Of a stretch of 38,082 bases of DNA, positions 5,203 to 24,258 are shown piece by piece. Numbering within the stretch: position 1 is the stretch's first letter; every line of letters starts with the position of its first letter. Under the pieces are notes generated by a model. It made no database searches, was not told where the DNA came from, and saw nothing but the letters and a program-made list of their open reading frames with translations. Source of the DNA: a virus; the IMG/VR virus record IMGVR_UViG_3300027693_000002, one strand, 5' to 3'. Both the position numbers and the translations under genes were made by a program.

Positions 5203-5949
5203 TCATAACCCACCTACCCGTAGCACGAGGTTAACGTACTCCAAACCCCGTGGTAGATCCCGGTTCACCAAAACCTTCCGACGAGTGCACGTCGTGGGTG
5301 CCTTGGTCTTGGGGTTGAACCCAGTCCTCTCGAAGTCCTCCCAATAGAGACCGACACCATGCTTTTGCCAGGTAGCGAGCTTGTTGAAATTGATCCCATG
5401 CTGAAAGAGTAGTTCGTTCTTGGCCGAGAAACTCCGACCTTCAAGGACCTCCGTCGCCTGCTTGGCGTTCTTCCCAGCCTTTCTCAACGTCCAGTAACAC
5501 CAGGAGTTCAGACAACAGCGAAAGGCATCCGACTGCCTCCATCGGAAGTAATCGACCACGTCGTTCTCCAAGATCCCCACCCAGACCCGACCGTCAAAGT
5601 GACCAGGCTTGCCCAGCTCCAACGAAAAGGTCGACGACGCTATCCCCGCAGAGACCGACACAAGCTTCTCCACTTCGCGACCGAATAGATCCGTATCACG
5701 AGGCAGTAGAACCGAAATTTCGTCACTCTCCGTGAATGCATAGAGTCCACCTAACTCAATCAACAAAGCCTTCGCCGTCGCCACCATGCACTCGTGAAAC
5801 TTCACATCGAATGGATGCTCCATTCCTCGGGTCAGCTTCGTGAAGCTCCGCCCATCAACACGAACAATGGGATAGGCACCAGGTAAGACTTCCAGCGCAT
5901 GATAGCACTCAAGCCGTCGCATCCGAACATCAAGGTTGTCACTTTTCAT
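5203..5949 (-). CDS. Thg1-like protein (tRNA-His guanylyltransferase / 3'-5' nucleotide polymerase family)
   Basis: 248 aa. The motifs IVRVDGRSF, TESDEISVLL, FDGRVWV, RWRQSDAFRCCLNSWCYWTL and SAKNELLFQHGINFNK align, from memory, with conserved Thg1 blocks ([55 protein letters not shown]). Confidence 0.8.
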   Translation of the reverse strand: MKSDNLDVRMRRLECYHALEVLPGAYPIVRVDGRSFTKLTRGMEHPFDVKFHECMVATAKALLIELGGLYAFTESDEISVLLPRDTDLFGREVEKLVSVSAGIASSTFSLELGKPGHFDGRVWVGILENDVVDYFRWRQSDAFRCCLNSWCYWTLRKAGKNAKQATEVLEGRSFSAKNELLFQHGINFNKLATWQKHGVGLYWEDFERTGFNPKTKAPTTCTRRKVLVNRDLPRGLEYVNLVLRVGGL

Positions 5950-6131: not shown

Positions 6132-6569
6132 ATGAAAGTCACGAATCTCACCAATGCTCCGATCTACCTGAAGGACTTAAGACTCATTCGGCAGGGTCAA
6201 TCCGAGGCCCGGAGAGCTGAGGACCAGTACATTGGGGCGGGACGTAGTGTTTACCTGCCCGACACTTCAGAAGTCATTCGATCCGCTCAAAAAGGTGATC
6301 TCTATCAGTTCGAGAAGGTGGGTAAGCTAAGGCTCAACGAGATCCTCTCTCTAGCGGCCTTCCCGGGCCCAGGGAACTCAGCAACGATACACCATGACCT
6401 AGGGTATTACCCCAACGCAGCAGCTCTCAAAAAGGTTGTTACGGGTTCGGTAGTCACGTGGTTAACCTCTATAGGTGCCGTAGACATCATCCACAACGCT
6501 ACCTTCACAGAGACCACCTTCATCAATACAGTGGCCTTGCCTTTAGAGTTCTTAGTAAGGGTTGGATAA
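6132..6569 (+). CDS. hypothetical protein (145 aa), translationally coupled to the downstream tailspike-like gene
   Basis: Its 8-nt overlap with 6562..8526 suggests a two-gene structural module. Confidence 0.5.
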   Translation: MKVTNLTNAPIYLKDLRLIRQGQSEARRAEDQYIGAGRSVYLPDTSEVIRSAQKGDLYQFEKVGKLRLNEILSLAAFPGPGNSATIHHDLGYYPNAAALKKVVTGSVVTWLTSIGAVDIIHNATFTETTFINTVALPLEFLVRVG

Positions 6570-8526
6570 TATGACAGTTACACCACAAGAACTCGCTCGT
6601 GATGACTTCGGGACTATCATCCGAAAGCTCAACGTCCCCGGGGGACCCAACTCCTTTAGCCTTGGTGACGTCATCATCATCGATGACGTCAACGGGAATG
6701 ACTCAACGGGAGTGATCAACGGATTACCCTTCAAAACAGTTGAAGCCGCCATCGCCTACATCAATACGTATGGCTTCACGGAAGTGACTATGTGGCTCTT
6801 ACCGGGGCGGTATACTATCGCTGCCGGGTTCGTAATGCCCGCCACCTGCTCAATGCGTGGATTCAGCTTGCAAGTGTGCAGCATCACACTCACTACCTCT
6901 GTAAGCGCTACAATGATCACGATGGGGGAGAATTCTCGTATAGAGGATCTGACCCTGAACTTAACGTCAACATCAGATACGGCTAACCTAGTACTACTTG
7001 AGCTCCCGGGTACGACGTCAATCACATCGAAGATCAGAACTTGCGTTCTCAATATAGATAACGCCACAGTCTCGACGGGCAGTACCACCAACGTGTATGG
7101 CCTCTACGTGACAGGTACCGGTATCCTTGGGCCAGCAACGTTCAGCTTCAATCAAACTCGAAGTAGCACAATGAATCTCCGTTCCAACGGGAATGGCCAC
7201 AAGTACGGGATCTACTTGCCCCCGACAGGCTCCGGGTGTCAGATCTCCTGGAGAGACTCAAACATTTACGTTGCCGCCCCACGAGACTTGGCCTCAGCGG
7301 GTAACTACACTGGGGTTTGCTGTGAGAATAACAACAGCCAAATCCAGCTAAGAACAACCTCCATATCTGGAGTACCCTATCAATCACCAACTACTAACCC
7401 CTCGGTACGCCTGTTCTCACTTGTGAACACGACTCTATCAGGGATCCAAACCATTCAAGGAGTCACACTGGTCGCTGGTGACCGAATCCTCCTCGGAAGT
7501 CAAAACACAGAAACCCAGAACTCTGTTTGGATAGTTGCTAGTGAGGCTTGGACCCGTGCGGCAGATATGCCCCTTGGCAGCAATGCCAGTGGATCTTGGA
7601 TAGAGGTGCAAGAAGGAAGCTTCGCGTCCCAAAAGTGGCTCTGTGTTAGTTACCCAGCCACAGTTGGCACAGATCCTCTAACCTGGAGACACACCTATAG
7701 CGGGGTAGATCTCAAGTTGCCCGTGATGGCCAGGTATACAGGGGGATCCCCTACAGGATCTAGAGCAGCTCAAGGCTCCTACACGCCCGCCGAAGGAGAT
7801 CGCCTATTCTTGGATCAGGCCACAAGTGCAGTAAACAATGGTACTTGGACCTACAATTCGACTGGAGCCTGGACTCGGGCTGGGGATATGCCCGCAGGAA
7901 CAACTTCCTTCAATGCCTACATAACTGTGGAGGGTGGTACAGATGAAGGACACGCATTCATCTGCACTACCGTGGGTACTGTGGATACAGATGATCTAAC
8001 GTTTGTGCCCAAGTACAACGGATCGGATATCCTTCAACTCCTACCGCTCTCGGGTAACGTGCCCAATGGCATCAACGTCGGGCCTGGTGTTGACTTGGTT
8101 ACGAAAAGTACCAATGGCAAGCCTTTCTCAACATACACGAGACCAAATACTTTCGTGTATGGCTATCGAGGTAACCTGCCTAATGGTATCAGGTACCTAT
8201 GGCAAGGACTGCAGACCGCGTTGGACAGTACCCAGGTATTCTACCGCTTCCAGCAAGATACCATCGTGCAAGGGATCTCCATCGTAGTTAGGAACACAGA
8301 TTTAGGCACCACTGTGGTTAAGGCAACGGCACTCAAGTCCTTGAGTGGTATCGCCGGACAGGGGATCCACACTCCAGTGAGTGTGAGCATCACTAACGGG
8401 ATCACTATGGCAGAGAATTACAAATCTTCTATACTGTTCGAACGAGCCTCATTCCTCGCAGTACAACTAGAATCTAACTCACCCGTTAGCCCCGGAGACT
8501 TCACTGTCGAGATTGATGCCTACTGA
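6562..8526 (+). CDS. tailspike / tail-fiber-like receptor-binding protein, with an N-terminal pectate-lyase-type beta-helix signature and two ~60-aa C-terminal tandem repeats
   Basis: 654 aa, Ser/Thr/Gly/Asn-rich. The N-terminal pattern GDVIIIDD...PFKTVEAAIAYIN...GRYTI resembles the starts of beta-helix depolymerases. Internal repeats GDRxxL...AWTRAxDMPxG...GTDxLTW/F occur twice. Confidence 0.55.
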   Translation: MDNMTVTPQELARDDFGTIIRKLNVPGGPNSFSLGDVIIIDDVNGNDSTGVINGLPFKTVEAAIAYINTYGFTEVTMWLLPGRYTIAAGFVMPATCSMRGFSLQVCSITLTTSVSATMITMGENSRIEDLTLNLTSTSDTANLVLLELPGTTSITSKIRTCVLNIDNATVSTGSTTNVYGLYVTGTGILGPATFSFNQTRSSTMNLRSNGNGHKYGIYLPPTGSGCQISWRDSNIYVAAPRDLASAGNYTGVCCENNNSQIQLRTTSISGVPYQSPTTNPSVRLFSLVNTTLSGIQTIQGVTLVAGDRILLGSQNTETQNSVWIVASEAWTRAADMPLGSNASGSWIEVQEGSFASQKWLCVSYPATVGTDPLTWRHTYSGVDLKLPVMARYTGGSPTGSRAAQGSYTPAEGDRLFLDQATSAVNNGTWTYNSTGAWTRAGDMPAGTTSFNAYITVEGGTDEGHAFICTTVGTVDTDDLTFVPKYNGSDILQLLPLSGNVPNGINVGPGVDLVTKSTNGKPFSTYTRPNTFVYGYRGNLPNGIRYLWQGLQTALDSTQVFYRFQQDTIVQGISIVVRNTDLGTTVVKATALKSLSGIAGQGIHTPVSVSITNGITMAENYKSSILFERASFLAVQLESNSPVSPGDFTVEIDAY

Positions 8527-9362: not shown

Positions 9363-9865
9363 GACGGTTTCACTAAGAGGTAGTACTTCGCCCCTGCGGG
9401 ATCCAATCCGAGGTCAGTGAAGAGCAGAACCGCCTTCTCTAAGCCCTCGATTCGATCCGGATGCCAAAACGGGTAGAACTCCGTGCAAGTGTTCGCCCCT
9501 CCATCCACGACCGTAACCCCAAATAGCCAGTCTTCACTATCGTTCGGATCAAACCACTGCTGAGGTACTTGATGCTGACAGTTGAGAAGAGTAGATAGCG
9601 CCACGTCAATGGACATCCCATACTGAGTAGCATACTCGACTACGATTGGCGAAGGCACCATCCGATCCCGCTTTTTCACCGTTGAACCACACTGGGGACA
9701 GTAGAGCCCGCCCGGTACAACTACATGGGAAGAGTTTGACTGGCACACGGGCTCCATCCCATCAACTACTTGAAGTAGTTGATGATCGAACCGATATCCG
9801 TAAATGACTTTCCCATTGGCTTTGAACTCATAGACCATCGTAATAGCCAATTCTATACCACCCAT
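9359..9865 (-). CDS. hypothetical protein with a CxxC pair (168 aa)
   Basis: ORF; 4-nt overlap with its neighbour. Confidence 0.5.
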   Translation of the reverse strand: MGGIELAITMVYEFKANGKVIYGYRFDHQLLQVVDGMEPVCQSNSSHVVVPGGLYCPQCGSTVKKRDRMVPSPIVVEYATQYGMSIDVALSTLLNCQHQVPQQWFDPNDSEDWLFGVTVVDGGANTCTEFYPFWHPDRIEGLEKAVLLFTDLGLDPAGAKYYLLVKPS

Positions 9866-10209
9866 GGCCGCTTGTATCGACTTAAAACAGGAACTTTTGA
9901 GGGCTCTGTAGGCCGAGGGTCGTCAAGCTCCCAGTTCAGGTAGGCCGTCAGCCGCTCCCGTACGTCCCGCCTCTGAACCACACCCGTCAGAGGTGTGCCC
10001 ATAAGTCGTGCCTCGTCCAGCTCCCGAAGCGCCAGTAACCCACACGTCCAAAACACCTCGCAGGTCGGACACATGTACCCAAGCATCTGCCTCATTGGGT
10101 CGTCCGCCGGCTGAACTCGATGCCCATGCTCATGGACGTGAGCCCGGATGTCCCGTACCATCCGCACTGGATCCCTGTAGTTTGCCACCATGACACTCGA
10201 TAACCTCAT
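9853..10209 (-). CDS. hypothetical His-rich protein (118 aa). The start may be an internal ATG.
   Basis: ORF in the operon. It overlaps 10130..10426 (-), so one of the two starts is probably wrong. Confidence 0.35.
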   Translation of the reverse strand: MRLSSVMVANYRDPVRMVRDIRAHVHEHGHRVQPADDPMRQMLGYMCPTCEVFWTCGLLALRELDEARLMGTPLTGVVQRRDVRERLTAYLNWELDDPRPTEPSKVPVLSRYKRPWVV

Positions 10210-10426
10210 CCAAAGACTTCAAACCATACGAGAATCCAACCCAGGTGACCTGGAGGTCTTCTACCTCGTCCACATAGACGCTCCGCCCTTCATCATAGAC
10301 AAGGTTGAACCAACCAAGGCCGACATTACTGGCGAAGACTTCGGCTACGAAGAAGGTCAGCCCTATATCCTGATCTCCAATGACGAAGTATGACCACGTT
10401 CTTCCGCTTCCAGGCCTCCCCATCAA
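10130..10426 (-). CDS. hypothetical protein (98 aa)
   Basis: ORF in the minus-strand operon. It competes with the plus-strand ORF 10190..10393. Confidence 0.3.
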   Translation of the reverse strand: MMGRPGSGRTWSYFVIGDQDIGLTFFVAEVFASNVGLGWFNLVYDEGRSVYVDEVEDLQVTWVGFSYGLKSLDEVIECHGGKLQGSSADGTGHPGSRP

Positions 10427-10514
10427 AGAAGTCAGACGTTGATCCCCCTAACAGGGGAAGCCTTCGAGTACTTCCCCTGAGACTCCCAACCTTCCCTCGG
10501 TGCTCGCCCCCTTG

Positions 10515-10799
10515 TCAAACGTGACTTGGTTGAAGGTCAACCTCAGTTACCTCAAGCTCAGGGTAATCGTCAAGGAACCGCTGAACCAAGACTATCAGGT
10601 TCGCCTTGGCCTCCTCCCGAGTATCACCCTCAGCTCGAAAAGGTTCTTCGCCCTGAAGCCCAAACGGAACAGTCATCGCTAAGTAGCGCTTCTTACTTGT
10701 TGAAGGGTAACAACACAGCCTTTGAGCCTGGTTGTAGGTTACGATTTGAAACTTCACGGCTACCTCGCTTCTTTTGTACAAACAAACTCCAAGGGGCAT
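10515..10799 (-). CDS. hypothetical protein (94 aa)
   Basis: ORF in the minus-strand operon. Confidence 0.4.
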   Translation of the reverse strand: MPLGVCLYKRSEVAVKFQIVTYNQAQRLCCYPSTSKKRYLAMTVPFGLQGEEPFRAEGDTREEAKANLIVLVQRFLDDYPELEVTEVDLQPSHV

Positions 10800-10815
10800 G
10801 AGAAAGGTCCAAACT

Positions 10816-11289
10816 TCACGACTTCCCCTTGCGAACTAAGCTCAGATCCGGCCTGCTGAAGAGAGAACGAAGATCATCTGCCCGAGCCCTCAGCTCTGCA
10901 AACCACTCGGGCGAGCGCCCCTTACCCAAACGGTCCCACACAAGTGAAAGGCTCGCTTGCCAAGCTGCATCCTTCGACCACGTTATCGAAGACTCCAACT
11001 CCAAAGGTGTTGCCACTTGACACCAGACTTCCTTGTCCCGGACAACTTGGACAAGAACAGAGTCACCGCCGGCTACCTCGATTGCCCGATTCGCTACCCT
11101 GAGTATGAACTGGTGGTAAGCCGCACTCTTAGGGTAGACTCGAACAAGTAACCAAAGAAGCCATGACCCATTCTCACATCGCTCCCACGCCTCTTGAAGT
11201 GTCGTCCCCAAAGGTAACCCGCTCAACCAATCAAGAGATGAATCACAAGCCCCACGTTTCTCCAGTAGCTCAATCACTTCGTCCATCAT
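10816..11289 (-). CDS. hypothetical protein (157 aa)
   Basis: ORF; 4-nt overlap with the downstream gene. Confidence 0.5.
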   Translation of the reverse strand: MMDEVIELLEKRGACDSSLDWLSGLPLGTTLQEAWERCENGSWLLWLLVRVYPKSAAYHQFILRVANRAIEVAGGDSVLVQVVRDKEVWCQVATPLELESSITWSKDAAWQASLSLVWDRLGKGRSPEWFAELRARADDLRSLFSRPDLSLVRKGKS

Positions 11290-11504
11290 AGCCTCTCAAC
11301 AGATACAGGCGGTCCAAGAGATTCACCACCACCTACGACAAACTTCTCAACCAACAAGTTGGACGCCTCCCCATAGGCTACGTCATTGACATCCTCCCCA
11401 CCCTCGACCGAGACCTCAACAATGACCTGGCTACCCGTAACCCGCTCACCAGAAGAGGATAGAAAGACGTTGTACGTTACTCGGTACATCATTACGACCA
11501 CCAC
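11286..11504 (-). CDS. hypothetical protein (72 aa)
   Basis: Coupled by an overlap. Confidence 0.4.
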   Translation of the reverse strand: MVVVMMYRVTYNVFLSSSGERVTGSQVIVEVSVEGGEDVNDVAYGEASNLLVEKFVVGGGESLGPPVSVERL

Positions 11505-11914
11505 CCCCGATTATTCAGCGCTACAATGTCCGAGTAGAGAGCTTTCACGTTCTCAACCGAGATCCCATACTTGGCCGACAGTGCAGCCATTCGAGCACGG
11601 TATCTCTCGGTCCGCTCCATACCCTCGGCAAAGCTCTGTGCAGCGTTCGCGTCCCGAATCTCTTTGGCTCGCCTCCAATGAGAGCGGGTCTCGTGCTCAA
11701 GACAGTCCAGTAGAACAGCCCCGCACCCCGACATCGAACCGTCAAGCTTCAAACACGTAATCGATGCATGGGTAGAGGTCAAGGATTCAATGACTCCTAC
11801 CTCGCCAACAATGTGAACCATCATATCCTTCGGTTGACGTGCTACGAGAACGATGTCTCCAAGGGCAAATGCTGTCATACGCCTATGTGTACTAAAACGC
11901 GTAGGCAAACGCAA
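11492..11914 (-). CDS. hypothetical protein (140 aa)
   Basis: ORF. Confidence 0.5.
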   Translation of the reverse strand: MRLPTRFSTHRRMTAFALGDIVLVARQPKDMMVHIVGEVGVIESLTSTHASITCLKLDGSMSGCGAVLLDCLEHETRSHWRRAKEIRDANAAQSFAEGMERTERYRARMAALSAKYGISVENVKALYSDIVALNNRGWWS

Positions 11915-12253
11915 GCTTTTGGTTTACTGTCCCGCCATCGAAGGACAAAGACTCGGCCAGAATAGCACAGTCGGTTTCTACTTCGCCTACGGACACGCCC
12001 TAGGCCAACCCTCAAGATAGAACACCTCCCCATAAGCCACCACCAAGCCTAGAGAGTCTTGGAACACCAATACCAACCGCAGCACTGTCGTTGGTATAGA
12101 CGATGACCTGTGGCACCTCAACCCTAAGCAATACCCCTCAAGCTCGGTACCCTTCAGTTCCCCGATGCCTTCAAGTGGCAACCCACCAAGAAGACCCCCT
12201 CGACCGTAATGGAGCCACATGACATCTCAGCCAGCTAGAACATCGTCAGTAGC

Positions 12254-12622
12254 TCAACCCCTACCCAACACGTCATCAAGTATCACCCGCATCTCGTCAT
12301 CCGTAATGAGAGAGGCTCCAACCCCAACAGGTGAACCTTGAGTGCCCTCGTCAACTGGTCGCTCAGACTCTGAAGTTGACTCCCCTACTTCAGGCTCGAT
12401 AACTGGTTCAGGTCCCACCTCAGGCTCAGGTGAGATGGACTCAGATGACAACCCATCAGGCTTGTACCCAGCCCTCTCATTGAGTGACTCCCGTATCCAA
12501 GTCGATAGGCGCTTCCCACTCTCACTGGCGCGAAGCGCCCATGACCGTGCTTTCCCATCCCTTGCCCGAATGAGTATAGTTTTCGTGTAGTTCTTGACGG
12601 CCATGCTCGAATAAGCCGTCAT
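12254..12622 (-). CDS. ribbon-helix-helix (CopG/Arc/ParG-like) DNA-binding protein candidate with an acidic PE-rich tail
   Basis: The N-terminal KNYTKTILIRARDGKARSWALRASESGKRLSTWIRESLNERA fits the RHH beta-alpha-alpha pattern. It is the first gene of the minus-strand operon and sits directly beside the iteron array. Confidence 0.45.
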   Translation of the reverse strand: MTAYSSMAVKNYTKTILIRARDGKARSWALRASESGKRLSTWIRESLNERAGYKPDGLSSESISPEPEVGPEPVIEPEVGESTSESERPVDEGTQGSPVGVGASLITDDEMRVILDDVLGRG

Positions 12623-12639
12623 ACACCGCAGCTTTGAAC

Positions 12640-12835
12640 TTGTATATCACTTTCCTTTCCGGCTCTTGGGTCAGTGATATACAAATTATCCCGGCTCTTG
12701 GGTCAGTGATATACAAGCCCATTGGCCTGCGAAGCCTGCCCGTGGGCTTGTATATCACTTTGGTTCTTGGTTCGGTTTTGTATATCACTCGGCCTACGGG
12801 CTCGTATAGCACCGACCGACCGTTTTGTATATCAC
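12640..12835. repeat. iteron array: 7 copies of TTGTATATCAC (4-5 direct, 2 inverted, 1 degenerate) spaced 23-42 bp
   Basis: Copies at 12640-12650 (direct), 12674-12684 (inverted), 12706-12716 (inverted), 12748-12758, 12778-12788, 12802-12812 (degenerate) and 12825-12835. The array overlaps the likely promoter region of the RHH gene. Confidence 0.8.
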
Positions 12836-12968
12836 CAGACCTCCCGAATATCAAACCCACCTGATCTAAAATTCCAAATAAACGCGACAAACGGCAAAAC
12901 ACTATACAAATCACGGCACTTTCGTGCAATTGACTTGTGCAGTGTTTTTACTACACATTTGAAAACAG

Positions 12969-13065
12969 CACACAGTTTCCCTGCAGAACTGTGTGTTTTA
13001 CACAACCCCCAGTTGTGTTGTGAGGTTTCCTACACACATCCGACGATGCGCCTTCGGCGCATCGT
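12969..13065. other. cluster of inverted repeats and GC hairpins
   Basis: CACACAGTT...AACTGTGTG at 12969-12995 and ACACAAC...GTTGTGT at 13000-13018. A 10-bp stem hairpin with a tight loop at 13043-13065 has the core TGCGCCTTCGGCGCA. The same 15-mer recurs near 31366. Confidence 0.6.
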
Positions 13066-13224
13066 GATTTACTGTGAAAGTAGTAGGTGTCGGATAACCA
13101 CACCAGAACAGGCGCTTCGCGCAAGTGTAGGTAGGGTAGTCCTATAAGATATGAGGTAGTGTTTGTCATACGTCTATACCTATGTAGGCGAGGGTATGAT
13201 TAGCTATGGTAGGTACGAAAGATA

Positions 13225-13300
13225 AGGTAGCCTACACGTAAGTGACGAGCGCGCTCGAATCAATAGTAACGAGCGTGGTTCTTGCCTACGTGTAGTTGTA
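13225..13300. repeat. R1 inverted-repeat element, copy 1 (GCCTACACGTAAGT ... CGAATCAATAGTAACGA ... CTACGTGTAGT)
   Basis: 10-bp terminal inverted repeats, CTACACGTAG / CTACGTGTAG. Homologous copies lie at 18103-18178 and 27825-27900. Confidence 0.65.
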
Positions 13301-13365
13301 AGAACCGTAGGAACCCGTACCCTCATGGGGTAGTCCTCTACTTACATAGATAGAGTAGAAAGAAG

Positions 13366-13399
13366 TTGAGAGTTCGGGTGCTCGTGCGTAATAGAGGGC
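13366..13399 (+). promoter_or_regulatory. consensus leaderless promoter
   Basis: TTGAGA, a 14-nt spacer, GCGTAATA (13386-13393), gagggc, then ATG at 13400. Confidence 0.65.
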
Positions 13400-13954
13400 A
13401 TGAGCCAAACCGAACGAAATGGGGTCGTTCTTACGAGTGGACTTCTTGAGGGGTGGGAGGTTTCCAACCTCATCCCGAGTGAACAACTTCCAATGGAGGC
13501 GCTGAAGGTGTTCGAAGCCCCGATTTCCTCTGAGAACAAGATAGGGCTTCTCCTACGTGAAGAGATTCTTGGGGGAAGGGGGATGGTCTACGTGGCGGCT
13601 AGGGCTGCGCGCCGAGCCTGCACAGAGACAGGTTGGGACCATCCTGCTACCCTTCGAGCTCTCGACCTATGCGACCGTTACGCTGAGGGGGAAGAGATCT
13701 CAGCTAAAGCGCTAGGGGCAGCTGCTTTGGCTGTTTCTGAGGCTCCTTCAATGGCTGATGATGCCCCTTCAATGGATGCTTGGGAGGCTGCTCATGGGGC
13801 TGCTCGAGTTGCTTGGGCTGTTGCCGTTGATACTAGTGCCCGGACTAGGGCACTAACAGTTATTCGAACGGCTGTTAGTGCTGTCCCTAGTGAGAAGGAA
13901 GAGAGAAAAGCCCAACTCGCCGATTGTCGGGAGTGGCTTACGAGACGGGCCTAA
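13400..13954 (+). CDS. family A small protein (184 aa), paralogous to 17189..17803
   Basis: Promoter motif. The paralogue shares ...REEILGGRGMVYVAARAARRACTETGWDHPATLRALDLCDRY... Confidence 0.7.
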   Translation: MSQTERNGVVLTSGLLEGWEVSNLIPSEQLPMEALKVFEAPISSENKIGLLLREEILGGRGMVYVAARAARRACTETGWDHPATLRALDLCDRYAEGEEISAKALGAAALAVSEAPSMADDAPSMDAWEAAHGAARVAWAVAVDTSARTRALTVIRTAVSAVPSEKEERKAQLADCREWLTRRA

Positions 13955-13963
13955 GGAATTTGG

Positions 13964-13999
13964 TTGAGTTCTCTAGGCGCCCATGCGTAATAGGGTGGC
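13964..13999 (+). promoter_or_regulatory. consensus leaderless promoter
   Basis: TTGAGT (13964-13969), 15-nt spacer, GCGTAATA (13985-13992), then ATG at 14000. Confidence 0.65.
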
Positions 14000-14356
14000 A
14001 TGAGCAAAGTCGAACGAGAAGCTGTCATCCTGAACACGGTTCCTGGTTCGAAGTGGTATCAGTGCGTGAATAGCAAGTGGGTAGTGGGCTTGGTCGAGAG
14101 GGTAACCAAGACTACGATCTACCTCGAAGGGGGGACTCGCATCTCGAAGAGGAACTGTCGTGACCAAGATGGTTGGGCTTGGTATCCACCCACTCAGAAC
14201 ATCGTCAAGCAGTTCGAGGACTTTGAGGTCGCCAGGGTTGCTTACGAGGCGGCCGTAGAGAAGCTTCGAGAGGCAGCTCAGCGTGCTACGCCTGCTCAAC
14301 TTCTCAAGCTAGCCACTCAGCTAGAGAGCCTCATTGACCTGTCGGAGATTCACTGA
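14000..14356 (+). CDS. family B small protein (118 aa), with paralogues at 15380 and 16333
   Basis: Shared ...NTVPGSKWYQC...W...VTKTT...GG..ISK..CRD..G..W.PPTQ...; promoter motif upstream. Confidence 0.75.
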   Translation: MSKVEREAVILNTVPGSKWYQCVNSKWVVGLVERVTKTTIYLEGGTRISKRNCRDQDGWAWYPPTQNIVKQFEDFEVARVAYEAAVEKLREAAQRATPAQLLKLATQLESLIDLSEIH

Positions 14357-14401
14357 CCGCTCGTACTAGGAGGCCCGAGAAATTGACCTCGGGTATGGGA
14401 C

Positions 14402-15196
14402 ATGAAAAAGCCAATTGAATTGATCGTTCGGGGTTCTGTTGAGATTTCATCCTTCCAATTCAGCCTTGAGGCCACAGAAAATGTGGTGTGGCTGTCACGT
14501 ACGATGCGTGGCGTAGTCTCCGGGCTACTAGGCGTGTCGACGGGCGACATTGACGTCGTTGTCGTTGACGATTTCTTTTCTGGTCGAGGCCGATGGGGCC
14601 AGGTTTTGGAGATCTCAAACAAGACTGGTAAGTTCGACGGGACTCGGCGGATTCGGATGCTATTTCGCCTGCTCCCAGAAGAGCAAGCTCGCGATTTGAG
14701 GCCAATTAGCCTTGAGGTATCGGCTGATGAGACAGTTCCCTGTACGGTCATGGTGAGTGACCGGTTCGCCGGCAAGGAATTGCTATGGTCGCAGTCTTTT
14801 GTTCGCTACTCACATCGATTGTCTGACCCGGTACGGGCCGCAGATATCCTGACATGGCACTGGACGCGCTACTACCGTTTCCTACCGTGGTGTGATGTCG
14901 AGGATTTGGCACGCGACTTCGGGACTGCGGCGATTGGACTCACTCTGAGTGAGGCGAATCGCCTTGCTTCAAGGCAGCTCTACCAGAGGGCTAGAGAACA
15001 GGGTTGGAGGAAGTTGACTCTACGAGAGCAATCCCGGTGGCAGCTCCGTGGTCAGTGGCATCGCGACGAGGATTGCGTCACAGCTCGCGCCAAGCTTGGT
15101 GCACCCAACGGGGCGTCCGAAGCCTCGAATAGGGCCTCGCGTGCCAATGGTAAGCTTGACGACTACGAGTACTTGGCCGAGCAAATGGAGATCTAG
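14402..15196 (+). CDS. hypothetical protein (264 aa)
   Basis: Long ORF. The upstream signal is non-consensus (TTGACC ... TATGGGAC). Confidence 0.55.
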   Translation: MKKPIELIVRGSVEISSFQFSLEATENVVWLSRTMRGVVSGLLGVSTGDIDVVVVDDFFSGRGRWGQVLEISNKTGKFDGTRRIRMLFRLLPEEQARDLRPISLEVSADETVPCTVMVSDRFAGKELLWSQSFVRYSHRLSDPVRAADILTWHWTRYYRFLPWCDVEDLARDFGTAAIGLTLSEANRLASRQLYQRAREQGWRKLTLREQSRWQLRGQWHRDEDCVTARAKLGAPNGASEASNRASRANGKLDDYEYLAEQMEI

Positions 15197-15343
15197 AAGT
15201 TGACTCCAAACCCAGCTTAAGTTTCATAGAATGGGGAGCCAAGCACTGGGTTCCGGATGGGGTACTTGATGTTGGCCGACTTCCCAGTACCCCAGCCAAA
15301 GCTAGTTTCTTGGGGGTACCACAGGCGAACGCTATAGATTTTG

Positions 15344-15379
15344 GTTATGGGTTCGCAGGGGGCAAGCGTAATAGAGAAC
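15344..15379 (+). promoter_or_regulatory. consensus leaderless promoter (weak -35, GTTATG)
   Basis: GCGTAATA at 15366-15373, gagaac, then ATG at 15380. Confidence 0.55.
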
Positions 15380-15751
15380 ATGAACGCAGTTGATCGCGAA
15401 GAGGCCATTCGAAATACGGTACCTGGTTCAAAGTGGTATCAGTGCATCCATGGTAAGTGGCATGCGGTTGAGGTCAAGAAGGTAACCAAGACTACGGTTG
15501 TGCTTCTGGGGGGCACTTGCATCTCGAAGGCAACCTGTCGTGATCATGCTGGGCGGATCTGGTTTCCACCCACTCAGGACCTAGTTCTGGAGGTCATGGC
15601 GAAGAAGGACGCGATGACCTCTTACCTGGCAGCTCTAGAGAAGCTTCGAGCTATTGCTCAGTGGACTACAGCTGACCAGCTCCGGCAACTAGTCACCCAG
15701 ATGGAGAGCCTCATTGACCTCGTCACCGTCAATAGGGGCATAGGCCGGTGA
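15380..15751 (+). CDS. family B small protein (123 aa). The start is placed at the internal ATG defined by the promoter geometry and the paralogue N-termini.
   Basis: MNAVDREEAIRNTVPGSKWYQC... aligns with the family B N-termini. The track ORF begins 39 nt upstream, inside the promoter. Confidence 0.7.
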   Translation: MNAVDREEAIRNTVPGSKWYQCIHGKWHAVEVKKVTKTTVVLLGGTCISKATCRDHAGRIWFPPTQDLVLEVMAKKDAMTSYLAALEKLRAIAQWTTADQLRQLVTQMESLIDLVTVNRGIGR

Positions 15752-16201
15752 AGGTGGTAGGGGACTTTTGAGCTCCCTGCGTTTGAGTTCTGGGCCGGGG
15801 GCGTAGGTGATCATTCCGCGATACTGGGTAATGACAACGACGTCTTCGAGCTGGAATCCGGCGGACTTGACGTTACGTTGGATTCCGCCGTTGAGGACTC
15901 CGGTGAACCAGTTTGGTTTCTGCTTGAACTGGTCAGCGATCATCCTAGCGGAGAGACCATTTGGGGGGCCGGTCTTGATGAACTGGAGGACCTTCTTGGG
16001 GTTCGGCTTCAAGGCGGAGAGGAGTTTCATCCACGCCGTATCCCGGTCGAGGCGTGCCACTACCGGGATACGTGCTACGGGCTTTGGTTCATCCGCGACT
16101 GCCTGAAGGGTTGGGTTGAAGCCGTTCTCCTGAAGGAAGACGAGGGCCTTGATGAGGGCTTGATCGTCCTCGGTCTCGAATTGTACGAGAAATCTCGTCA
16201 T
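15689..16201 (-). CDS. hypothetical protein (170 aa) on the minus strand between plus-strand genes
   Basis: ATG start with AAGG about 9 nt upstream; natural-looking composition. It overlaps the 3' end of the 15380 gene by 63 nt. A competing plus-strand ORF 15878..16309 has a TTG start. Confidence 0.45.
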   Translation of the reverse strand: MTRFLVQFETEDDQALIKALVFLQENGFNPTLQAVADEPKPVARIPVVARLDRDTAWMKLLSALKPNPKKVLQFIKTGPPNGLSARMIADQFKQKPNWFTGVLNGGIQRNVKSAGFQLEDVVVITQYRGMITYAPGPELKRRELKSPLPPSPAYAPIDGDEVNEALHLGD

Positions 16202-16297
16202 AGGGGGCGCCTTAGTGGTACTGTAGTCAAGGCGTCATGCAAGAGGTTTTTGAGTAGGGGGACTTTTGAGTCAGAGGTTGAGTCTGCCTCAAAAGTC

Positions 16298-16332
16298 TCT
16301 CAGGACTAGGGCACAGGTGGTGTGTAGTAGGT
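16298..16332 (+). promoter_or_regulatory. degenerate promoter variant (…GTGTAGTAggtATG)
   Basis: A GTAGTA box ends 3 nt before the ATG at 16333. The -35 is unclear. Confidence 0.3.
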
Positions 16333-16701
16333 ATGAGCAACGCTATTCTTGAGGAAGCCGTTCGAAATACGGTCGCTGGGTCGAAGTGGTACCACCAAGT
16401 GGGTCGTAGTTGGCGTGAGGTCACTGTTGAGCGGGTAACCAAGACAATGGTCATTCTTACCAGTGGGGTACGAATCCCGAAGAAAACTCGTTGGGCTGAC
16501 GGGCACATATGGTTCCCACCCACCCCTGAGATGGTGGCGCTCTATGAGGCCCAGGATGCTCAAGAGATGGCTCATATCTTATACGTAGTAGCCTTAGAGA
16601 GGCTCCAGGCGTTGGCTCGGAAGTTTACGACCAACCAACTACGTCAGTTGGCCACTCAGATGGAGAGAGCCATCAAAGAGGTGGGAGACTCGCAGGGGTA
16701 A
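16333..16701 (+). CDS. family B small protein (122 aa)
   Basis: Paralogue of 14000 and 15380. Confidence 0.7.
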   Translation: MSNAILEEAVRNTVAGSKWYHQVGRSWREVTVERVTKTMVILTSGVRIPKKTRWADGHIWFPPTPEMVALYEAQDAQEMAHILYVVALERLQALARKFTTNQLRQLATQMERAIKEVGDSQG

Positions 16702-16856
16702 TCGAACCACTTCGGCCTGCTGTAAAAAGGTTGACTACCGGGGTGGGGGTGGAGTACTTTCCCGTTTGGCCTGAGCGTGGTTCTCCAATCATCTTCCACG
16801 TACGGGCTAGGCCGGGCCAGTTCTCCTTGTGTGCGGAGGATTGGCTCGGTCTTCTT

Positions 16857-17147
16857 TTATGGGGACCTCAAAGAGCCGGGTGGCTCGGGCAAATACATCC
16901 AATGGGTCACTAGCTCGGACTTGGAAAAGCGTACCCAATAGCCAGCATCCGATTCCACTAACCAATGAGACGTGCGATCGTACTTTGCAACGAGGAGTGC
17001 GTCCCAGCTATGCACTTCGCCGCTCGGGTATCGATCTACACGATGGTAGACGAGTAGTGGTTCATCGACTGGGGGATGGCATTCAGTGACCGGTACCCAG
17101 CCTTTCCTTTCGGGTTCAGGCTTCTCTTTCATGGGGCAAAAGTACAC
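16857..17147 (-). CDS. hypothetical protein (96 aa), minus strand
   Basis: ATG-start ORF with reasonable composition, sitting between plus-strand genes. Confidence 0.35.
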   Translation of the reverse strand: MYFCPMKEKPEPERKGWVPVTECHPPVDEPLLVYHRVDRYPSGEVHSWDALLVAKYDRTSHWLVESDAGYWVRFSKSELVTHWMYLPEPPGSLRSP

Positions 17148-17150
17148 CAG

Positions 17151-17188
17151 TTGACTTTTGGAGGTGATCCACGGATAATGAGGGTGGT
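17151..17188 (+). promoter_or_regulatory. promoter variant (TTGACT-N16-GGATAATG-N8-ATG)
   Basis: TTGACT at 17151-17156 and GGATAATG at 17173-17180. Confidence 0.45.
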
Positions 17189-17803
17189 ATGATCACCATT
17201 ACGAAAGAACTCCTTGAGAGTTGGGAGCCTTCCGACCTTATCCCAGACGAACTACTCCCGATGGGAGTGATGGAGTTGTTTGAAGCATCGATTCCGTCTA
17301 ATGCTAAAGTAGGGGTACTCCTACATGAAGAGATTCTTGGGCGGAGGGGAATGGTCTATGTAGTGGCTCGGGTTGCACGCCGAGGCTGTACGAAGACAGG
17401 TTGGTTCCATCCTGATACCCTTCGAGCTTTAGATCTGTGTGACCGATTTGTTAACGGGGAAGCGGTCTCAAAGGAAGAACTAGAAAGGGCTGCTAAGGCT
17501 GCTTGGGAGGTTCTGTCTGAGGATGCTCCTTCAATGCCTGCTTGGAGGACTGCTCATAGAGCTGCTCGGGTTGCTCAGGCTGCTGCTTGGGCTGCTTCTG
17601 TTATGACTACTTTGGCTAATGCTCAGGCTGCTGCTAGGGCTGCTACGACTTGGGCTGCTCGAGCAGCCACTTCTAGTGCTAAAAGTGCTAAAGAGAGAAG
17701 AGCTCAACTTACTGATTGCCAAGATTGGCTTCTAAGGAATTCCCCACAAGAAAGGGCTCCCGTACTTACTCGGTACCAGCGGATAATGAGGTCGTTGTGC
17801 TAA
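17189..17803 (+). CDS. family A small protein (204 aa) with an Ala-rich repetitive C-terminus
   Basis: Paralogue of 13400..13954. Confidence 0.7.
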   Translation: MITITKELLESWEPSDLIPDELLPMGVMELFEASIPSNAKVGVLLHEEILGRRGMVYVVARVARRGCTKTGWFHPDTLRALDLCDRFVNGEAVSKEELERAAKAAWEVLSEDAPSMPAWRTAHRAARVAQAAAWAASVMTTLANAQAAARAATTWAARAATSSAKSAKERRAQLTDCQDWLLRNSPQERAPVLTRYQRIMRSLC

Positions 17804-18102
17804 CCCTGGGGGAGGGTTAATGCGCCGTAGGGGGGAATGCCTTGGTCCAGTTCCGGATTTTGAGTTTGACGCTGACCTGTAAGATAGGTTGCCGGTAAGG
17901 TTACGAGCAGTGCATCAAGACTCGAGGGTGGTGGGGAGCCAGGGTCACTCTCGTTTATGACCAGAACAATGGGGGTGGCCTGGATAGTTAGTAGATTGCT
18001 TACAGGTAGGTAAGCTCTTGGCTCATTCCTATAGTTACCAGCGTATTGAGTAACTACATGTAAGCTAGTCCCTTGTTCGAGCTTATAAGCTCGAGCCTCT
18101 TG

Positions 18103-18178
18103 ATTGCCTACACGTAGTTTTAGAGCATGTTCGTAGCAATAGTAATGAGCCAATCATAAAACTACGTGTAGTTACATA
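18103..18178. repeat. R1 inverted-repeat element, copy 2
   Basis: GCCTACACGTAGT...CGTAGCAATAGTAATGAG...CTACGTGTAGT. Confidence 0.6.
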
Positions 18179-18404
18179 CTTTCTGGTTGAGAGTCCGCTT
18201 TTTGGTACATACTACGACTCATGTCATCAGTTGAGGGGAAAGTCGCACACTTTTTGAGAGCCGTAAGGCTCGGTTTGGTGAAAGACGTTCCACCGGATGC
18301 TGTCACATGTGAGTTCCATACAAAACTCACATGTGACAGCATCCGGGCTGCCACGTGTGGGGATAGGATTCTCGTAGAAAGGCAGGAACGCCGTCGAAGT
18401 TTGG

Positions 18405-18439
18405 TTGAGTTTGGCAAGACTGGCACGTAATACTAGGGC
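18405..18439 (+). promoter_or_regulatory. consensus leaderless promoter (TTGAGT-N14-CACGTAATA-N7-ATG)
   Basis: TTGAGT at 18405-18410, then ATG at 18440. Confidence 0.6.
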
Positions 18440-18670
18440 ATGACCCTCAAACATACGGCTGACATGCTTGCCTCGCTCAACGAACTGACTGCCAAGGTGA
18501 CGGCATTCAAGTCGTTTGCTGAGCTAGCAGCTCGCATGCTTGATGGGTACGTTCCCACTCTACGTGGAGACGATGCGGACTCAAAGGCCCTCGCCCTAGG
18601 GATCACCAGGGCGGGATTCAAGGCTTGGAACCCGGCAACGGGACGGAATTGGGTCGACGAAACCGGTTGA
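18440..18670 (+). CDS. family C small protein (76 aa)
   Basis: Its C-terminal 45 aa are nearly identical to 18936..19169. Its stop codon lies inside the next -35 box (ACCGGTTGAGG). Confidence 0.7.
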   Translation: MTLKHTADMLASLNELTAKVTAFKSFAELAARMLDGYVPTLRGDDADSKALALGITRAGFKAWNPATGRNWVDETG

Positions 18671-18700
18671 GGTTCTCGAAGCTCGCGCGTAATAAGAGGC
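18667..18700 (+). promoter_or_regulatory. consensus leaderless promoter
   Basis: TTGAGG (18667-18672), 14-nt spacer, GCGTAATA (18687-18694), then ATG at 18701. Confidence 0.65.
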
Positions 18701-18919
18701 ATGCCCAAGACGAAAAAGCTAACCCCCACCCAGGTTAAAACTCTCCAAGAGATCATCAAGATTACGGGTGTGGGGTTTCCTTGGAGTTGTGTCCCGGAAT
18801 ACAAGCCGGCTCTTAAGCTGCTCGAGCTCGGGTACGTGTCGAAGACTAAAAGTTTAGGTGGGTCTCTAATCATCTTGGTTCCGACCGAGCTAGGTCGATC
18901 AGTGGCTTCGAGCTTGTAA
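18701..18919 (+). CDS. family D small protein (72 aa)
   Basis: Paralogue of 21236..21475, with the shared block WSC.PEYKPALKLLEL.YVSK...LVPTELGRSVAS. Confidence 0.7.
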   Translation: MPKTKKLTPTQVKTLQEIIKITGVGFPWSCVPEYKPALKLLELGYVSKTKSLGGSLIILVPTELGRSVASSL

Positions 18920-18935
18920 GAGGGGGATTTTCTAC

Positions 18936-19169
18936 ATGAAAAGCGAAGTTCAAGTTGCTGCCCAGATCGACAAACTCAACCAGCTAACGGCTTCGGCCAC
19001 GGCCTTTAGGTCGTTCGCGGAGTTAGCTGCCAAGATGCTCGATGGGTACGTTCCCACCCTACGAGGGGACGATGCTGACTCGAAGGCGTTGGCTCTCGAG
19101 ATCACCAAGGCAGGATTCAAGGCTTGGAACCCGGCGACTGGGCGGAACTGGGTCGACGAAACCGGTTGA
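18936..19169 (+). CDS. family C small protein (77 aa), SD-led
   Basis: AGAGGGGGA lies about 10 nt upstream. Paralogue of 18440. Confidence 0.7.
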   Translation: MKSEVQVAAQIDKLNQLTASATAFRSFAELAAKMLDGYVPTLRGDDADSKALALEITKAGFKAWNPATGRNWVDETG

Positions 19170-19200
19170 GGTTCTTGGGGGTCGTGCGTAATAGGATGGC
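19166..19200 (+). promoter_or_regulatory. consensus leaderless promoter
   Basis: TTGAGG (19166-19171), 14-nt spacer, GCGTAATA (19186-19193), then ATG at 19201. The stop codon of the previous gene is inside the -35. Confidence 0.65.
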
Positions 19201-19641
19201 ATGGCACGATACCTCATCACCGTAGCGGCAGTTCTCCTAGTCGACCTGAGTGGATGTGCCCCTTTAGAGGACCACTTCCAGGTGACAGGGGACGCTACGG
19301 AGGAAGAGATTGCGATCATGCAGGAGGCCTCGGACGCTTGGTGTGAAGCGACGAGTGGTGCTTGGTGCGCCCAGATGAACCGGGAAGAGGGCGCCAACAA
19401 GATTCGCATCGTGCCGGTAGGGGTATTGCCGGGGAAGGATCACGCCATCTACACCCACCACAAGGGGTTGTATGAGTGGCACGAGATCCGGATTACGGAC
19501 CGTCGGGATAGAGACACGTGGGAGTTTGACTTGTATTACACAGTACTCCACGAGATGGGGCACGCCTACAACCTGCACCATCAGGATGGTACGGTGATGC
19601 AAGTTGGTTATGATCGTACACTGTTCGAAGAGAAGCCATGA
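19201..19641 (+). CDS. putative lipoprotein zinc metallopeptidase (metzincin-like HEMGHAYNLHH)
   Basis: Signal peptide plus lipobox (LVDLSGC). An HExxH motif with a third His is spaced as in metzincins (HExxHxxxxxH, with Asn in place of the usual Gly). Confidence 0.6.
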   Translation: MARYLITVAAVLLVDLSGCAPLEDHFQVTGDATEEEIAIMQEASDAWCEATSGAWCAQMNREEGANKIRIVPVGVLPGKDHAIYTHHKGLYEWHEIRITDRRDRDTWEFDLYYTVLHEMGHAYNLHHQDGTVMQVGYDRTLFEEKP

Positions 19642-19815
19642 AAGAAAAACTGATTCGTTGGTTGGTCGGGACCCCCACTCATGAGACGGGGAGTAAGCGT
19701 ATTAGGACCGTATGCGACGCCATCAAGTGGCGCTTAGGGGGACTCCCCTGGTTGGACGCGTCGGTACGGTACGATGGTTCAGTATCCCTCTACTATTACA
19801 GGTAATCTTTCCCAA

Positions 19816-19850
19816 TTGAGTTCAGGATAGGCTCAAGCGTAATAGACGTG
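19816..19850 (+). promoter_or_regulatory. consensus promoter followed by a 22-nt SD-containing leader
   Basis: TTGAGT at 19816-19821 and GCGTAATA at 19837-19844. There is no ATG at the canonical spot. AGGAGA sits 8 nt before the ATG at 19865. Confidence 0.55.
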
Positions 19851-19864
19851 CAGGAGAAGAAACC

Positions 19865-20563
19865 ATGATACAGTATGTACGTCCAGGGAAGAAACTAACA
19901 CTATACTGCCAGTGTTACAGTTACTTTGGGTCGGGGATTGGGATCGTCCGGTTGACGTTGACCGGCGGGGCCACACGGGGGCCTTCTGTGGAGTCCGGAG
20001 ACAACGGGTTCTGCCGCTGGAAGTCCTGCGAGGTGACCCTGCAGGCAGGGTCTACTGCGCGCGCGGAAGAGTCGTACTATCCCGGTGGGGACAGCGACAT
20101 CACTTACGTCGCGGACCTGGAGAAGTGGCGGGAGAAGAGGCGGGCCCATTTGGCTCGACTGTTTCAAGATCGGAAGATCGAGAGGGCGTACGCCGAGCTT
20201 CATTCGGCTCGTAAGCTGGAGATTGAGACTCGCTTACGAGCTGCGATCCAGGCTGCCATCGAGCTGGAGGGGCAGGCCCGGGCGCGAGCTTCAGGGCGTA
20301 GTGGCGGTCGAGCCCGAAGGGGAGCCGTGGTTCTTCGAGCCCAAGCGGCAGACCAACGTCGACTTGCGGCGGCCCTAGCATCAACCTACTACGTGGAAGT
20401 GCTCGAGTGCTGTAACCGAGCGTGGTCGGTCGACCAAGGGCTAGCGTCCCGAGAGGTTCGATGGGAAGCTCGGAACAGTTTCCGACAAAGCCGAGGCGGG
20501 CTAGCATCCGCCAAAATGCCAGCGGGTTGTGAAGTGGCACTCAAGTGGGCGTTAGCTGAGTAA
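19865..20563 (+). CDS. hypothetical Arg/Ala-rich protein (232 aa)
   Basis: ORF with an SD. Confidence 0.5.
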   Translation: MIQYVRPGKKLTLYCQCYSYFGSGIGIVRLTLTGGATRGPSVESGDNGFCRWKSCEVTLQAGSTARAEESYYPGGDSDITYVADLEKWREKRRAHLARLFQDRKIERAYAELHSARKLEIETRLRAAIQAAIELEGQARARASGRSGGRARRGAVVLRAQAADQRRLAAALASTYYVEVLECCNRAWSVDQGLASREVRWEARNSFRQSRGGLASAKMPAGCEVALKWALAE

Positions 20564-20851
20564 GCCACACACTTTCGAGTTCAAAATTTGGACATTGACT
20601 TAGAACTGGGCTATTCGGGGTGGGTATGGACGAATTCAGTCACAGAATCCGGCAAATAGCCCATCTCGTGCTTCACAAGCAGGACACATCATCTTTTGAC
20701 CCGCTCGAGGTAGAGGCGGCCAAGATCTACCTCAAAGACCAGGGGCCCGAGGAACCCGAGACTGAACGGCCACCAAGCTCTCCAAGTTCTCCAAAGCGCT
20801 CTTAGAGGAACTTGGTCTCGAAGGGGGGGTGGGATTTCCTCGAAAGAGAGG

Positions 20852-20885
20852 TTGAGCCCGGGCTCCCTCGCGCGTAATAGAGAGC
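20852..20885 (+). promoter_or_regulatory. consensus leaderless promoter
   Basis: TTGAGC, 14-nt spacer, GCGTAATA (20872-20879), then ATG at 20886. Confidence 0.6.
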
Positions 20886-21062
20886 ATGTCTACCGAAACC
20901 CGCCTAGAAGTTATGGCTCATGCTGCCCGTTGGGCAAACAACATGCTCAATGAGGTTCAGGCGAATCATGGGGTCCTGTTAGGACCCCATGCGAGACAAG
21001 CTCTGAAAACGGCAGTCCTGGCCCTAGGGGACTTTCTACTACACGTGAGCGTCAACGAATGA
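20886..21062 (+). CDS. hypothetical 58-aa protein (below the 60-aa cutoff of the ORF track)
   Basis: An ATG at the canonical distance from the promoter; translates to MSTETRLEVMAHAARW...VNE. Confidence 0.5.
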   Translation: MSTETRLEVMAHAARWANNMLNEVQANHGVLLGPHARQALKTAVLALGDFLLHVSVNE

Positions 21063-21205: not shown

Positions 21206-21235
21206 TCTCTTTAGAGCCCAGGCGTAATAGAGTGC
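21202..21235 (+). promoter_or_regulatory. consensus leaderless promoter (TTGATC-N14-GCGTAATA)
   Basis: GCGTAATA at 21222-21229, then ATG at 21236. Confidence 0.6.
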
Positions 21236-21897: not shown

Positions 21898-21898
21898 G

Positions 21899-22569: not shown

Positions 22570-22575
22570 ATCTGG

Positions 22576-22817: not shown

Positions 22818-22831
22818 AACGCGAATGTTAT

Positions 22832-24245: not shown

Positions 24246-24258
24246 GCGCGCTTTCTGG

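Follow-up and report, generated by a model that had tools for sequence, protein, structure and literature searches.

What does a cluster of short repeats, lying in both orientations directly upstream of a gene for a small ribbon-helix-helix (RHH) protein, do for the virus that carries it? The question is raised by a locus at positions 12254 to 13065 of the IMG/VR virus record IMGVR_UViG_3300027693_000002, a stretch of 38,082 nucleotides that is here called the window. A sequence-only reading of this locus had proposed a partition, origin or autoregulatory function, together with a phage-plasmid lifestyle. Comparison with related loci and modelling of the protein make it most likely that the locus represents a known device, a regulator-operator module, in a new version, and not a new kind of system. 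The explanation tentatively preferred here is that the RHH protein is an autoregulator and the repeats are its operator array, which together would control a leftward operon. The alternatives to be weighed are a replication origin, a centromere, a set of sites for some other factor and a cluster of promoters.

A conserved array of sites upstream of the RHH gene

The 11-mer TTGTATATCAC is found six times without mismatch on the two strands of the window, at 12640(+), 12674(-), 12706(-), 12748(+), 12778(+) and 12825(+), where 0.32 copies would be expected; six copies were reached in none of 100 dinucleotide shuffles. No further copy with at most one mismatch was found in the rest of the 38,082 bases, and when up to three are allowed, 60 copies lie outside the array against 58.7 expected, which is chance level. 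The array covers 196 bp (12640-12835), which bears out the span of about 200 bp and the two orientations first described, while the seven copies then counted become six exact ones and a relic with two mismatches, TCGTATAGCAC, at 12802-12812. The proximal site S1 (cTTGTATATCACt, 12640-12650, plus strand) ends 36 nt upstream of the ATG at 12604, and S2 (12674-12684, minus strand) is inverted relative to it at 34 bp centre to centre. S3 (12706-12716, minus strand) and S4 (12748-12758, plus strand) belong to the left and right arms of a central palindrome with 22-nt arms (12705-12726 and 12738-12759; -20.3 kcal/mol, z -6.7), which has GCGAAGC at its exact centre (12729-12735). S5 (12778-12788) and the decayed S6, both on the plus strand, follow, and S7 (12825-12835, plus strand) closes the array at its distal end. 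At the position aligned with S6, one related locus (L009) has an exact copy and another (L005) has TTGTATAGCAC. In a further relative, L010, the central ~15 nt of the S3/S4 palindrome are inverted (GGCTTCGCAGG); small inversions at palindrome centres recur elsewhere in the locus, as described below.

When the flanks of 38 exact copies from five lineages are tallied, the putative binding unit comes to 13 bp, Y-TTGTATATCAC-T. Measured from the RHH start codon, the sites stand 36-232 nt upstream, in mixed orientation and at centre-to-centre distances of 19-43 bp (79 bp once, in L009), and the distal ones are about 23-24 bp, or about two helical turns, apart. Several known identities for the repeats were considered and rejected. 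By inspection they match the consensus of neither DnaA boxes (TTATCCACA) nor integration host factor (IHF) sites, and as extended -10 promoters they would consist of TGATATACA without the -7 T, in copies that face each other. A literature search for the motif returned unrelated primers and short hairpin RNAs only. Of seven IMG/VR loci collected by a scan for tandem TTGTATATCAC (L013-L019), L013 and L018, which were inspected, are unrelated low-GC tandem repeats of 22 or 33 bp, and the other five contain just 2-4 regularly spaced copies.

Homologous loci (L003/4, L005-8, L009, L010-12, L022, L023-25 and L028/29) come from sediment, groundwater and soil metagenomes, and contigs of 99-120 kb carry near-identical copies; the host element is an uncultivated phage of about 100-120 kb. 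None of 50,697 phage records was matched by positions 9500-17000 in blastn, a search by protein pattern in GTDB genomes and IMG/VR found no relatives, and the candidate L002 was discarded as a spurious C-terminal match that has no sites. When all open reading frames (ORFs) of the window between 8.5 and 17.5 kb were compared by tblastn with six related loci, only the RHH gene and the gap upstream of it were shared, and the genes on either flank, those behind the RHH gene among them, are different ones in each lineage. Each of eight lineages has 5-12 copies of this 11-mer, solely upstream of the homologous RHH gene, and in all eight the proximal copy begins 46-47 nt before the ATG, that is, the position of S1 is unchanged. 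Identity within the array is 98.9% in site columns against 70.7% in spacer columns, and the copy number, spacing and orientation of the sites vary among lineages. On this alignment the 11-mer sites are under selection, and the claim that the repeats form a functional, selected array tied to the RHH gene is supported by their conservation in all eight lineages.

One lineage offers a natural variant of the pair. The most divergent protein, P0008 of L022, has YPRTIVIRAK in place of YTKTILIRAR, and of the eight sites in the L022 array six read TTGTATAGCAC, one reads CTGTATAGCAC and one is unchanged. A change from T to G at site position 8 thus accompanies T7P/K8R/L11V/R15K in the protein. In L023 the strand of the protein (P0007) is unchanged and the array keeps TTGTATATCAC.

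The RHH protein

The ORF at 12254-12622 on the minus strand was confirmed, but its in-frame ATG at 12622 is not kept as a start among homologues; because all of these, and other assemblies of the same phage, begin at MAVKNYTK, the start is placed at the ATG at 12604, which gives a protein of 116 residues (12254-12604, minus strand). The protein has three parts. An N-terminal RHH domain (residues ~7-46, 12467-12586) is followed by an acidic linker of about 55 residues (~47-100), rich in Pro, Glu and Ser, which is poorly conserved and predicted to be disordered, with disorder called for residues 71-97. The C-terminal part is a conserved amphipathic helix, LITDDEMRVILDDVL (residues ~101-114, helix predicted for 102-114), with the pattern (L/V)TDDEMxxLLDxxF, in which T101, D103 and L109 are invariant.

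The RHH assignment was obtained from an AlphaFold2 (AF2) model of residues 1-52, with a predicted local distance difference test (pLDDT) value of 78, an extended stretch at 1-17 and helices at 18-29 and 33-45. Almost all of the top 50 Foldseek matches of this model are RHH structures, Arc among the leading ones, at template-modelling scores of 0.6-0.7 and with weak E-values (0.7-4). The model has the beta-alpha-alpha domain of about 45 residues that characterizes the MetJ/Arc superfamily, and by structure the protein belongs to the RHH superfamily, as judged from a model of medium confidence. The superfamily is further marked by an intertwined dimer whose two-stranded beta-ribbon enters the major groove; the model here is that of a monomer. 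The first Foldseek match is the N-terminal part of the anti-CRISPR protein AcrIF25 (PDB 8jdi/8jdh), which is also the best PDB sequence match, non-significant at E 1.5, of the marginal relative P0010. Five clear family members and three marginal ones, P0010, P0011 and P0013, were recovered when 1.84 billion representatives were searched with a profile. The marginal ones have sub-threshold matches to families of the RHH clan, NikA-like (5.5e-5), TacA1, DUF6290, RelB and MobA, and a homologue search with a 42-residue fragment gave no candidates. The family is thus a very small one, previously unclassified.

Proposed control of the leftward operon

The RHH gene is the first of a tightly packed string of minus-strand genes that runs from 12604 to 9359, in agreement with its earlier description as the head of a minus-strand operon. 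The array forms the left end of a gap of 777-795 bp (12605/12623 to 13399), to the right of which lies a long block of plus-strand genes. RHH dimers probably bind the 13-bp sites, since gene and sites are found together, are conserved together and in one lineage vary together. Autorepression through 6-10 short repeats that face both ways has established precedents among RHH proteins in omega (PMC4627068) and ParR/ParG (PMC5016525). In the mechanism proposed here, the 116-residue protein would dimerise through its modelled N-terminal domain, and one dimer would recognise one asymmetric 13-bp site. The proximal site, 36 nt from the start codon and with its neighbour 32-37 bp further on, stands where the leftward promoter or 5' end would be expected, and occupancy of the sites would feed back on the RHH gene and on the variable accessory genes behind it. 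Contacts between the bodies of dimers, in the style of omega, CopG, Arc or ParR, are impossible because the sites lie 19-43 bp apart and in either orientation. It is proposed that the acidic linker and the C-terminal helix link one dimer with another, or with a partner, in a single higher-order complex over about 200-350 bp that would tolerate changes in copy number, spacing and orientation; bridging of this kind would explain why all three have drifted around a frozen 11-mer.

A different form of control is seen for the rightward genes, which have a phage promoter class of their own: gGTTGAGtt, 13-14 nt, GCGTAATA, 5-7 nt and ATG. Its 17 copies lie between 9050 and 31644 of the window, all on the plus strand and each ending at a start codon (0.27 by chance), and 16 of them fall within 13366-31644. 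One member, TTGAGA-N17-TAATAG (13366-13402, plus strand), stands 5 nt before the ATG at 13400 and about 530 bp from the array, and further examples lie at 18405-18442 and 27419-27455. Because each class promoter ends at a start codon, the class suggests leaderless mRNAs. The CGTA-type -10 element recalls promoters of extracytoplasmic function (ECF) sigma factors, and the window encodes a FliA/WhiG/ECF-like sigma factor at 37177-37824 on the minus strand (TIGR02479, 4.4e-16, below cutoff).

Several results weigh against autoregulation through the array. In the sense of the RHH gene, no promoter was found either by a scan with the sigma-70 consensus or, in eight lineages, by a position weight matrix built from the phage's 17 own promoters. 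Of the overlap of array and promoter that had been claimed, the place of the sites upstream of the ATG is borne out, and the promoter itself stays presumptive. The absence of the phage's own class in this sense counts in favour of the preferred reading, since the operon headed by the RHH gene must then be under another control than the rightward genes. Five to 12 sites over 200-350 bp exceed what a simple autorepressor needs, and the switch in GC skew, the A-rich tract and the palindromes beside the array fit an origin equally well. The change in L022 is what a protein-site pair would show, but it is a single event in a single lineage. Searches with the protein and its profile against Pfam, PHROGs, NCBIfam and the PDB (phmmer and hmmsearch) gave no match above threshold, and the full-length AF2 model, made from six sequences, is poor (pLDDT 57, one long helix). 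The RHH fold that had been predicted is thus recovered by AF2 and Foldseek but not by the curated sequence families.

Hairpins and palindromes beside the array

The part of the gap next to the array is structured and conserved. GC content drops to 37-43% over 12820-12999, and at 12850-12909 lies a tract of 37% GC, rich in A and C on the plus strand, with the conserved block GAAATTCCnAAATAA, which could be a DNA-unwinding element or a promoter region. A nested conserved hairpin, H1 (12896-12948, z -2.7), has the inner stem GCAC-TTTC-GTGC, which covaries to GCGC...GCGC in relatives. It is followed by H2 (12968-12996; -8.4 kcal/mol, z -3.4), an inverted repeat of CACACAGTT and AACTGTGTG whose arms are jointly replaced by CTACTCA/TGAGTAG in L003. 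The GC-rich H3, ACGATGCGCC-TTC-GGCGCATCGT (13043-13065, plus strand; -12.7 kcal/mol, z -5.2), is weakly terminator-like in the rightward sense and is conserved with compensatory changes. The CACACA/TGTGTG repeat and the stable hairpin reported for this region are thus real and are kept in relatives with some compensatory changes.

The palindrome GGCGC-NNN-GCGCC has only two good positions in the window. One, GGCGC-GAA-GCGCC, lies inside the RHH ORF at codons W22-A26 (12527-12539), and the other, here GGCGC-TTC-GCGC, lies at 13111-13123, so that array, A-rich tract and hairpins all lie between the two. Both persist in relatives (L003, L005, L009, L012, L022, L023 and L028), and between lineages the 3 nt of the loop are exchanged for their reverse complement (TTC/GAA, TCC/GGA); in the copy within the ORF this flip switches ALRAS to ARSAS. 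The Ala codons GCG...GCC that flank this loop never vary, and neighbouring codons change synonymously. Fixed codons around a flipping loop point to a constraint at the level of DNA or RNA. An invertible segment bounded by the two palindromes was considered and rejected, since one boundary lies inside the ORF and inversion would destroy the RHH gene.

In its right half the gap contains a dispersed element of about 130 nt, made of two nested hairpins on CTACRYGTAG palindromes (13160-13300), which is also present at 18 kb (18030-18180) and 27.8 kb (27700-27905) and is thus not specific to the RHH module. All three copies in the window occupy large non-coding gaps that precede a rightward promoter. 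The inner stem of the element covaries between copies (GCTCG/CGAGC and GTTCG/TGAAC), and it could be a cluster of protein sites, an RNA processing site or an insulator. An apparently perfect inverted repeat, ccggatgctgtcacatgtgagtt...aactcacatgtgacagcatccgg, with arms of ~23 nt, was also seen at 18293-18347 in the non-coding gap of 17.8-18.4 kb. Rfam gave no match on the whole window at the gathering threshold or on the gap at E<=1.

A possible replication origin

The strongest rival, and still a doubtful one, is that the locus is a replication origin, in which the repeats would be iterons, the A-rich tract an unwinding element, the palindromes accessory structures and the RHH protein an origin-binding protein that draws in a helicase, primase or loader by way of its acidic C-terminal helix; autoregulation would follow incidentally, as it does with plasmid Rep proteins. 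Cumulative GC skew is lowest at about 13 kb, as read from 38 kb of a genome of at least 100 kb, a limit that counts against giving the minimum much weight. The switch in skew does not follow gene orientation throughout: on the left, the skew of plus-strand genes (2182-2868 and 6132-8526) stays slightly negative, and on the right it stays positive in three of four minus-strand genes (15689-16201, 18433-18873 and 37177-37824), so that the switch is not purely transcriptional. The succession of array, A-rich tract of 37% GC and hairpins would suit an origin, the two-turn spacing of the distal sites and a copy number that varies from 5 to 12 resemble iterons, and the flipping palindrome loops suggest hairpin extrusion in single-stranded DNA. 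The GCGAAGC at the centre of the array adds to these points, the d(GCGAAGC) mini-hairpin being known from the origins of phiX174 and G4. On the other side, no recognisable initiator, helicase or primase gene adjoins the module in any lineage; the neighbouring genes, which are not conserved, gave no match to initiator families of the Rep, O or DnaA type; and the AT-rich tract is a modest one. The strict register between the proximal site and the ATG points to gene control. We know of no RHH protein that acts as a replication initiator, and one serving at the origin of a new group of environmental phages of about 100-120 kb, which would be the first to our knowledge, is less probable again than an origin as such. 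In this form of the idea the protein would coat dispersed 13-bp iterons and recruit the replisome through its conserved acidic C-terminal helix, and the GGCGC-N3-GCGCC pair would mark hairpin extrusion. If the origin role were true, it would define a new type of initiator.

A possible partition system

A centromere, on which a ParR- or omega-like RHH protein would assemble a segrosome and capture with its tail a motor encoded elsewhere, in the manner of a plasmid prophage, is improbable, and more so than an origin. An N-terminal RHH domain with a conserved C-terminal tail is the domain order of type II ParR (PMC5016525), about ten short repeats upstream of an operon that double as operators define parC, parH and the omega sites, and the TATCACT within each site fits the omega heptad WATCACW (PMC4627068). 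A motor could not be found. Among ORFs of at least 80 residues in the window and in seven related loci (L003, L005, L009, L012, L020, L022 and L023), the Walker-A pattern [AG]xxxxGK[ST] occurs only in one 90-residue ORF that is not a ParA; no Pfam match to ParA, ParM or TubZ lies within 10 kb on either side of the gene in eight lineages; and the window ORFs tested include no actin-like ParM gene or Pfam match. The search for such partners, which had been suggested alongside the original proposal, came back empty over this range, and the claim of partition and a phage-plasmid lifestyle is left unsupported. Moreover, the sites are not contiguous, the downstream genes are different in each lineage, and the window ORFs tested include neither an integrase nor a plasmid Rep nor any other temperate marker. 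The sigma gene, once read as a sign of a phage-plasmid, is uninformative on that lifestyle.

Type Ib partition proteins such as ParG and omega have a flexible N-terminal tail followed by a C-terminal RHH domain (PMC5016525), whereas the phage RHH domain begins at residue ~7 and its tail is C-terminal; a neighbouring Walker-type ParA is likewise missing from the window and the seven related loci. Membership in the partition families fails on the defining features examined. One homologue, P0005, was found on a contig of 435,302 bp (JGI 3300075153) that has NMT1/OmpA, ABC permease and trypsin-like genes within 7-10 kb. It may be integrated or a remnant and is the sole hint on lifestyle or host; its place beside transporter genes of bacterial type suggests integration, if anything, and so speaks against a plasmid. 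Both the origin and the centromere would be compatible with autoregulation through the proximal site.

Other readings of the sites

That the sites are bound by another factor, either from the host or from elsewhere in the phage, with the RHH gene merely adjoining them, is quite improbable. Such a reading gains from the indirect route by which RHH binding was arrived at and from the medium confidence of the fold model. It is opposed by the observation that gene and array are the sole features kept together in eight rearranged contexts, by the sites that shift in concert in the lineage with the most changed protein, by the mismatch with the DnaA-box and IHF consensus noted above and by the absence of the motif from the rest of the 38 kb. 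A promoter cluster for the phage sigma factor (37177-37824) or for host RNA polymerase can be dismissed almost outright, for although a sigma gene is present and the GTGATAT in each site has what we take to be a resemblance to the sigma-28 -10 element (C)CGATAT, the copies face both ways within 200 bp, no copy precedes another gene in the 38 kb or in related loci, no -35/-10 pair was found and the real promoter class of the phage is different and well defined.

Neighbouring genes

Around the module the gene content changes from lineage to lineage. In relatives, anti-defence genes lie nearby, namely an anti-Pycsar Apyc1 gene in L003 (13235-13873) and a Tad2-like gene in L023 (2249-2524). In several lineages a T5orf172/MUG113 gene, sometimes with the N-terminal domain of the P22 antirepressor (PF10547), directly follows the RHH gene (for example L005 6313-6957 and L028 9176-9673); it is absent from the window, and this neighbour is probably a mobile insertion. 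The leftward gene for a 118-residue protein (9853-10209, minus strand) has 2-4 paralogues in L003 and L009. On the rightward side, three paralogues (14000-14356, 15341-15751 and 16333-16701, plus strand) all match one 123-residue gene of L005, and one of the three has a weak Pfam match to a phage ProQ-C-like domain (E 0.006). The window also encodes a Thg1-like tRNA-His guanylyltransferase (5203-5949, minus strand; Pfam 1.2e-26), and a scan of the window found no tRNA genes.

Significance and comparison with known systems

A regulator paired with an operator array is not surprising in principle. What the module adds is a previously unclassified RHH family paired with a probable 13-bp code and a natural specificity variant, as well as an architecture in which the sites, contiguous in known RHH arrays, are dispersed and free in orientation and the protein has a long disordered tether. 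Within a region of accessory and anti-defence genes that changes fast among uncultivated large phages, the module is also the sole conserved feature, and it could be used to find and compare such hypervariable regions and to engineer their expression.

Among known systems, omega (w2) of pSM19035 binds 6-10 copies of a non-palindromic heptad, some direct and some inverted, ahead of the gene that encodes it (PMC4627068). The phage module resembles it in having a small RHH protein, short non-palindromic upstream sites in both orientations and a shared ATCAC core. However, the heptads are unspaced and allow cooperativity between adjacent dimers, whereas each phage site takes up 13 bp and lies 19-43 bp from the next; in omega a flexible N-terminal tail precedes the RHH domain, the reverse of the phage order, and the protein works with the delta/ParA partner, for which no counterpart was found; and the two proteins have no detectable sequence homology. 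The ParR/parC systems of R1 and pSK41, with an N-terminal RHH domain, a C-terminal tail and about ten upstream repeats of the 11-bp class that also serve as operator (PMC5016525), share with the phage module the domain order, the conserved tail and the upstream position of the repeats. They differ in that parC repeats are tandem and contiguous while the phage sites are dispersed and of mixed orientation, in that parM shares the operon while the phage module has no actin-like gene and variable genes downstream, and in that ParR has a helical cap domain where the phage protein has a disordered acidic linker.

The immI region of phage P22, with Arc and Mnt, offers a phage RHH repressor as the first gene of an operon that is shut off, and the N-terminal domain of the P22 antirepressor (PF10547) is found in the next gene of several relatives of the present phage, although no such neighbour exists in the window. 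Mnt carries a C-terminal oligomerisation helix. Each of these repressors uses a single operator of 21 bp or 17 bp, in contrast to the 5-12 dispersed sites of the phage module. Iteron origins, such as lambda ori with O and P4 ori/crr, share short repeats, an AT-rich tract, a palindrome and, on the 38 kb covered here, a switch in GC skew, and P4 ori/crr has dispersed octamers in both orientations. They have recognisable initiators, whereas here the binding protein would be an RHH protein of 116 residues, and the phage sites, unlike those of iteron origins, stand in strict register with a start codon.

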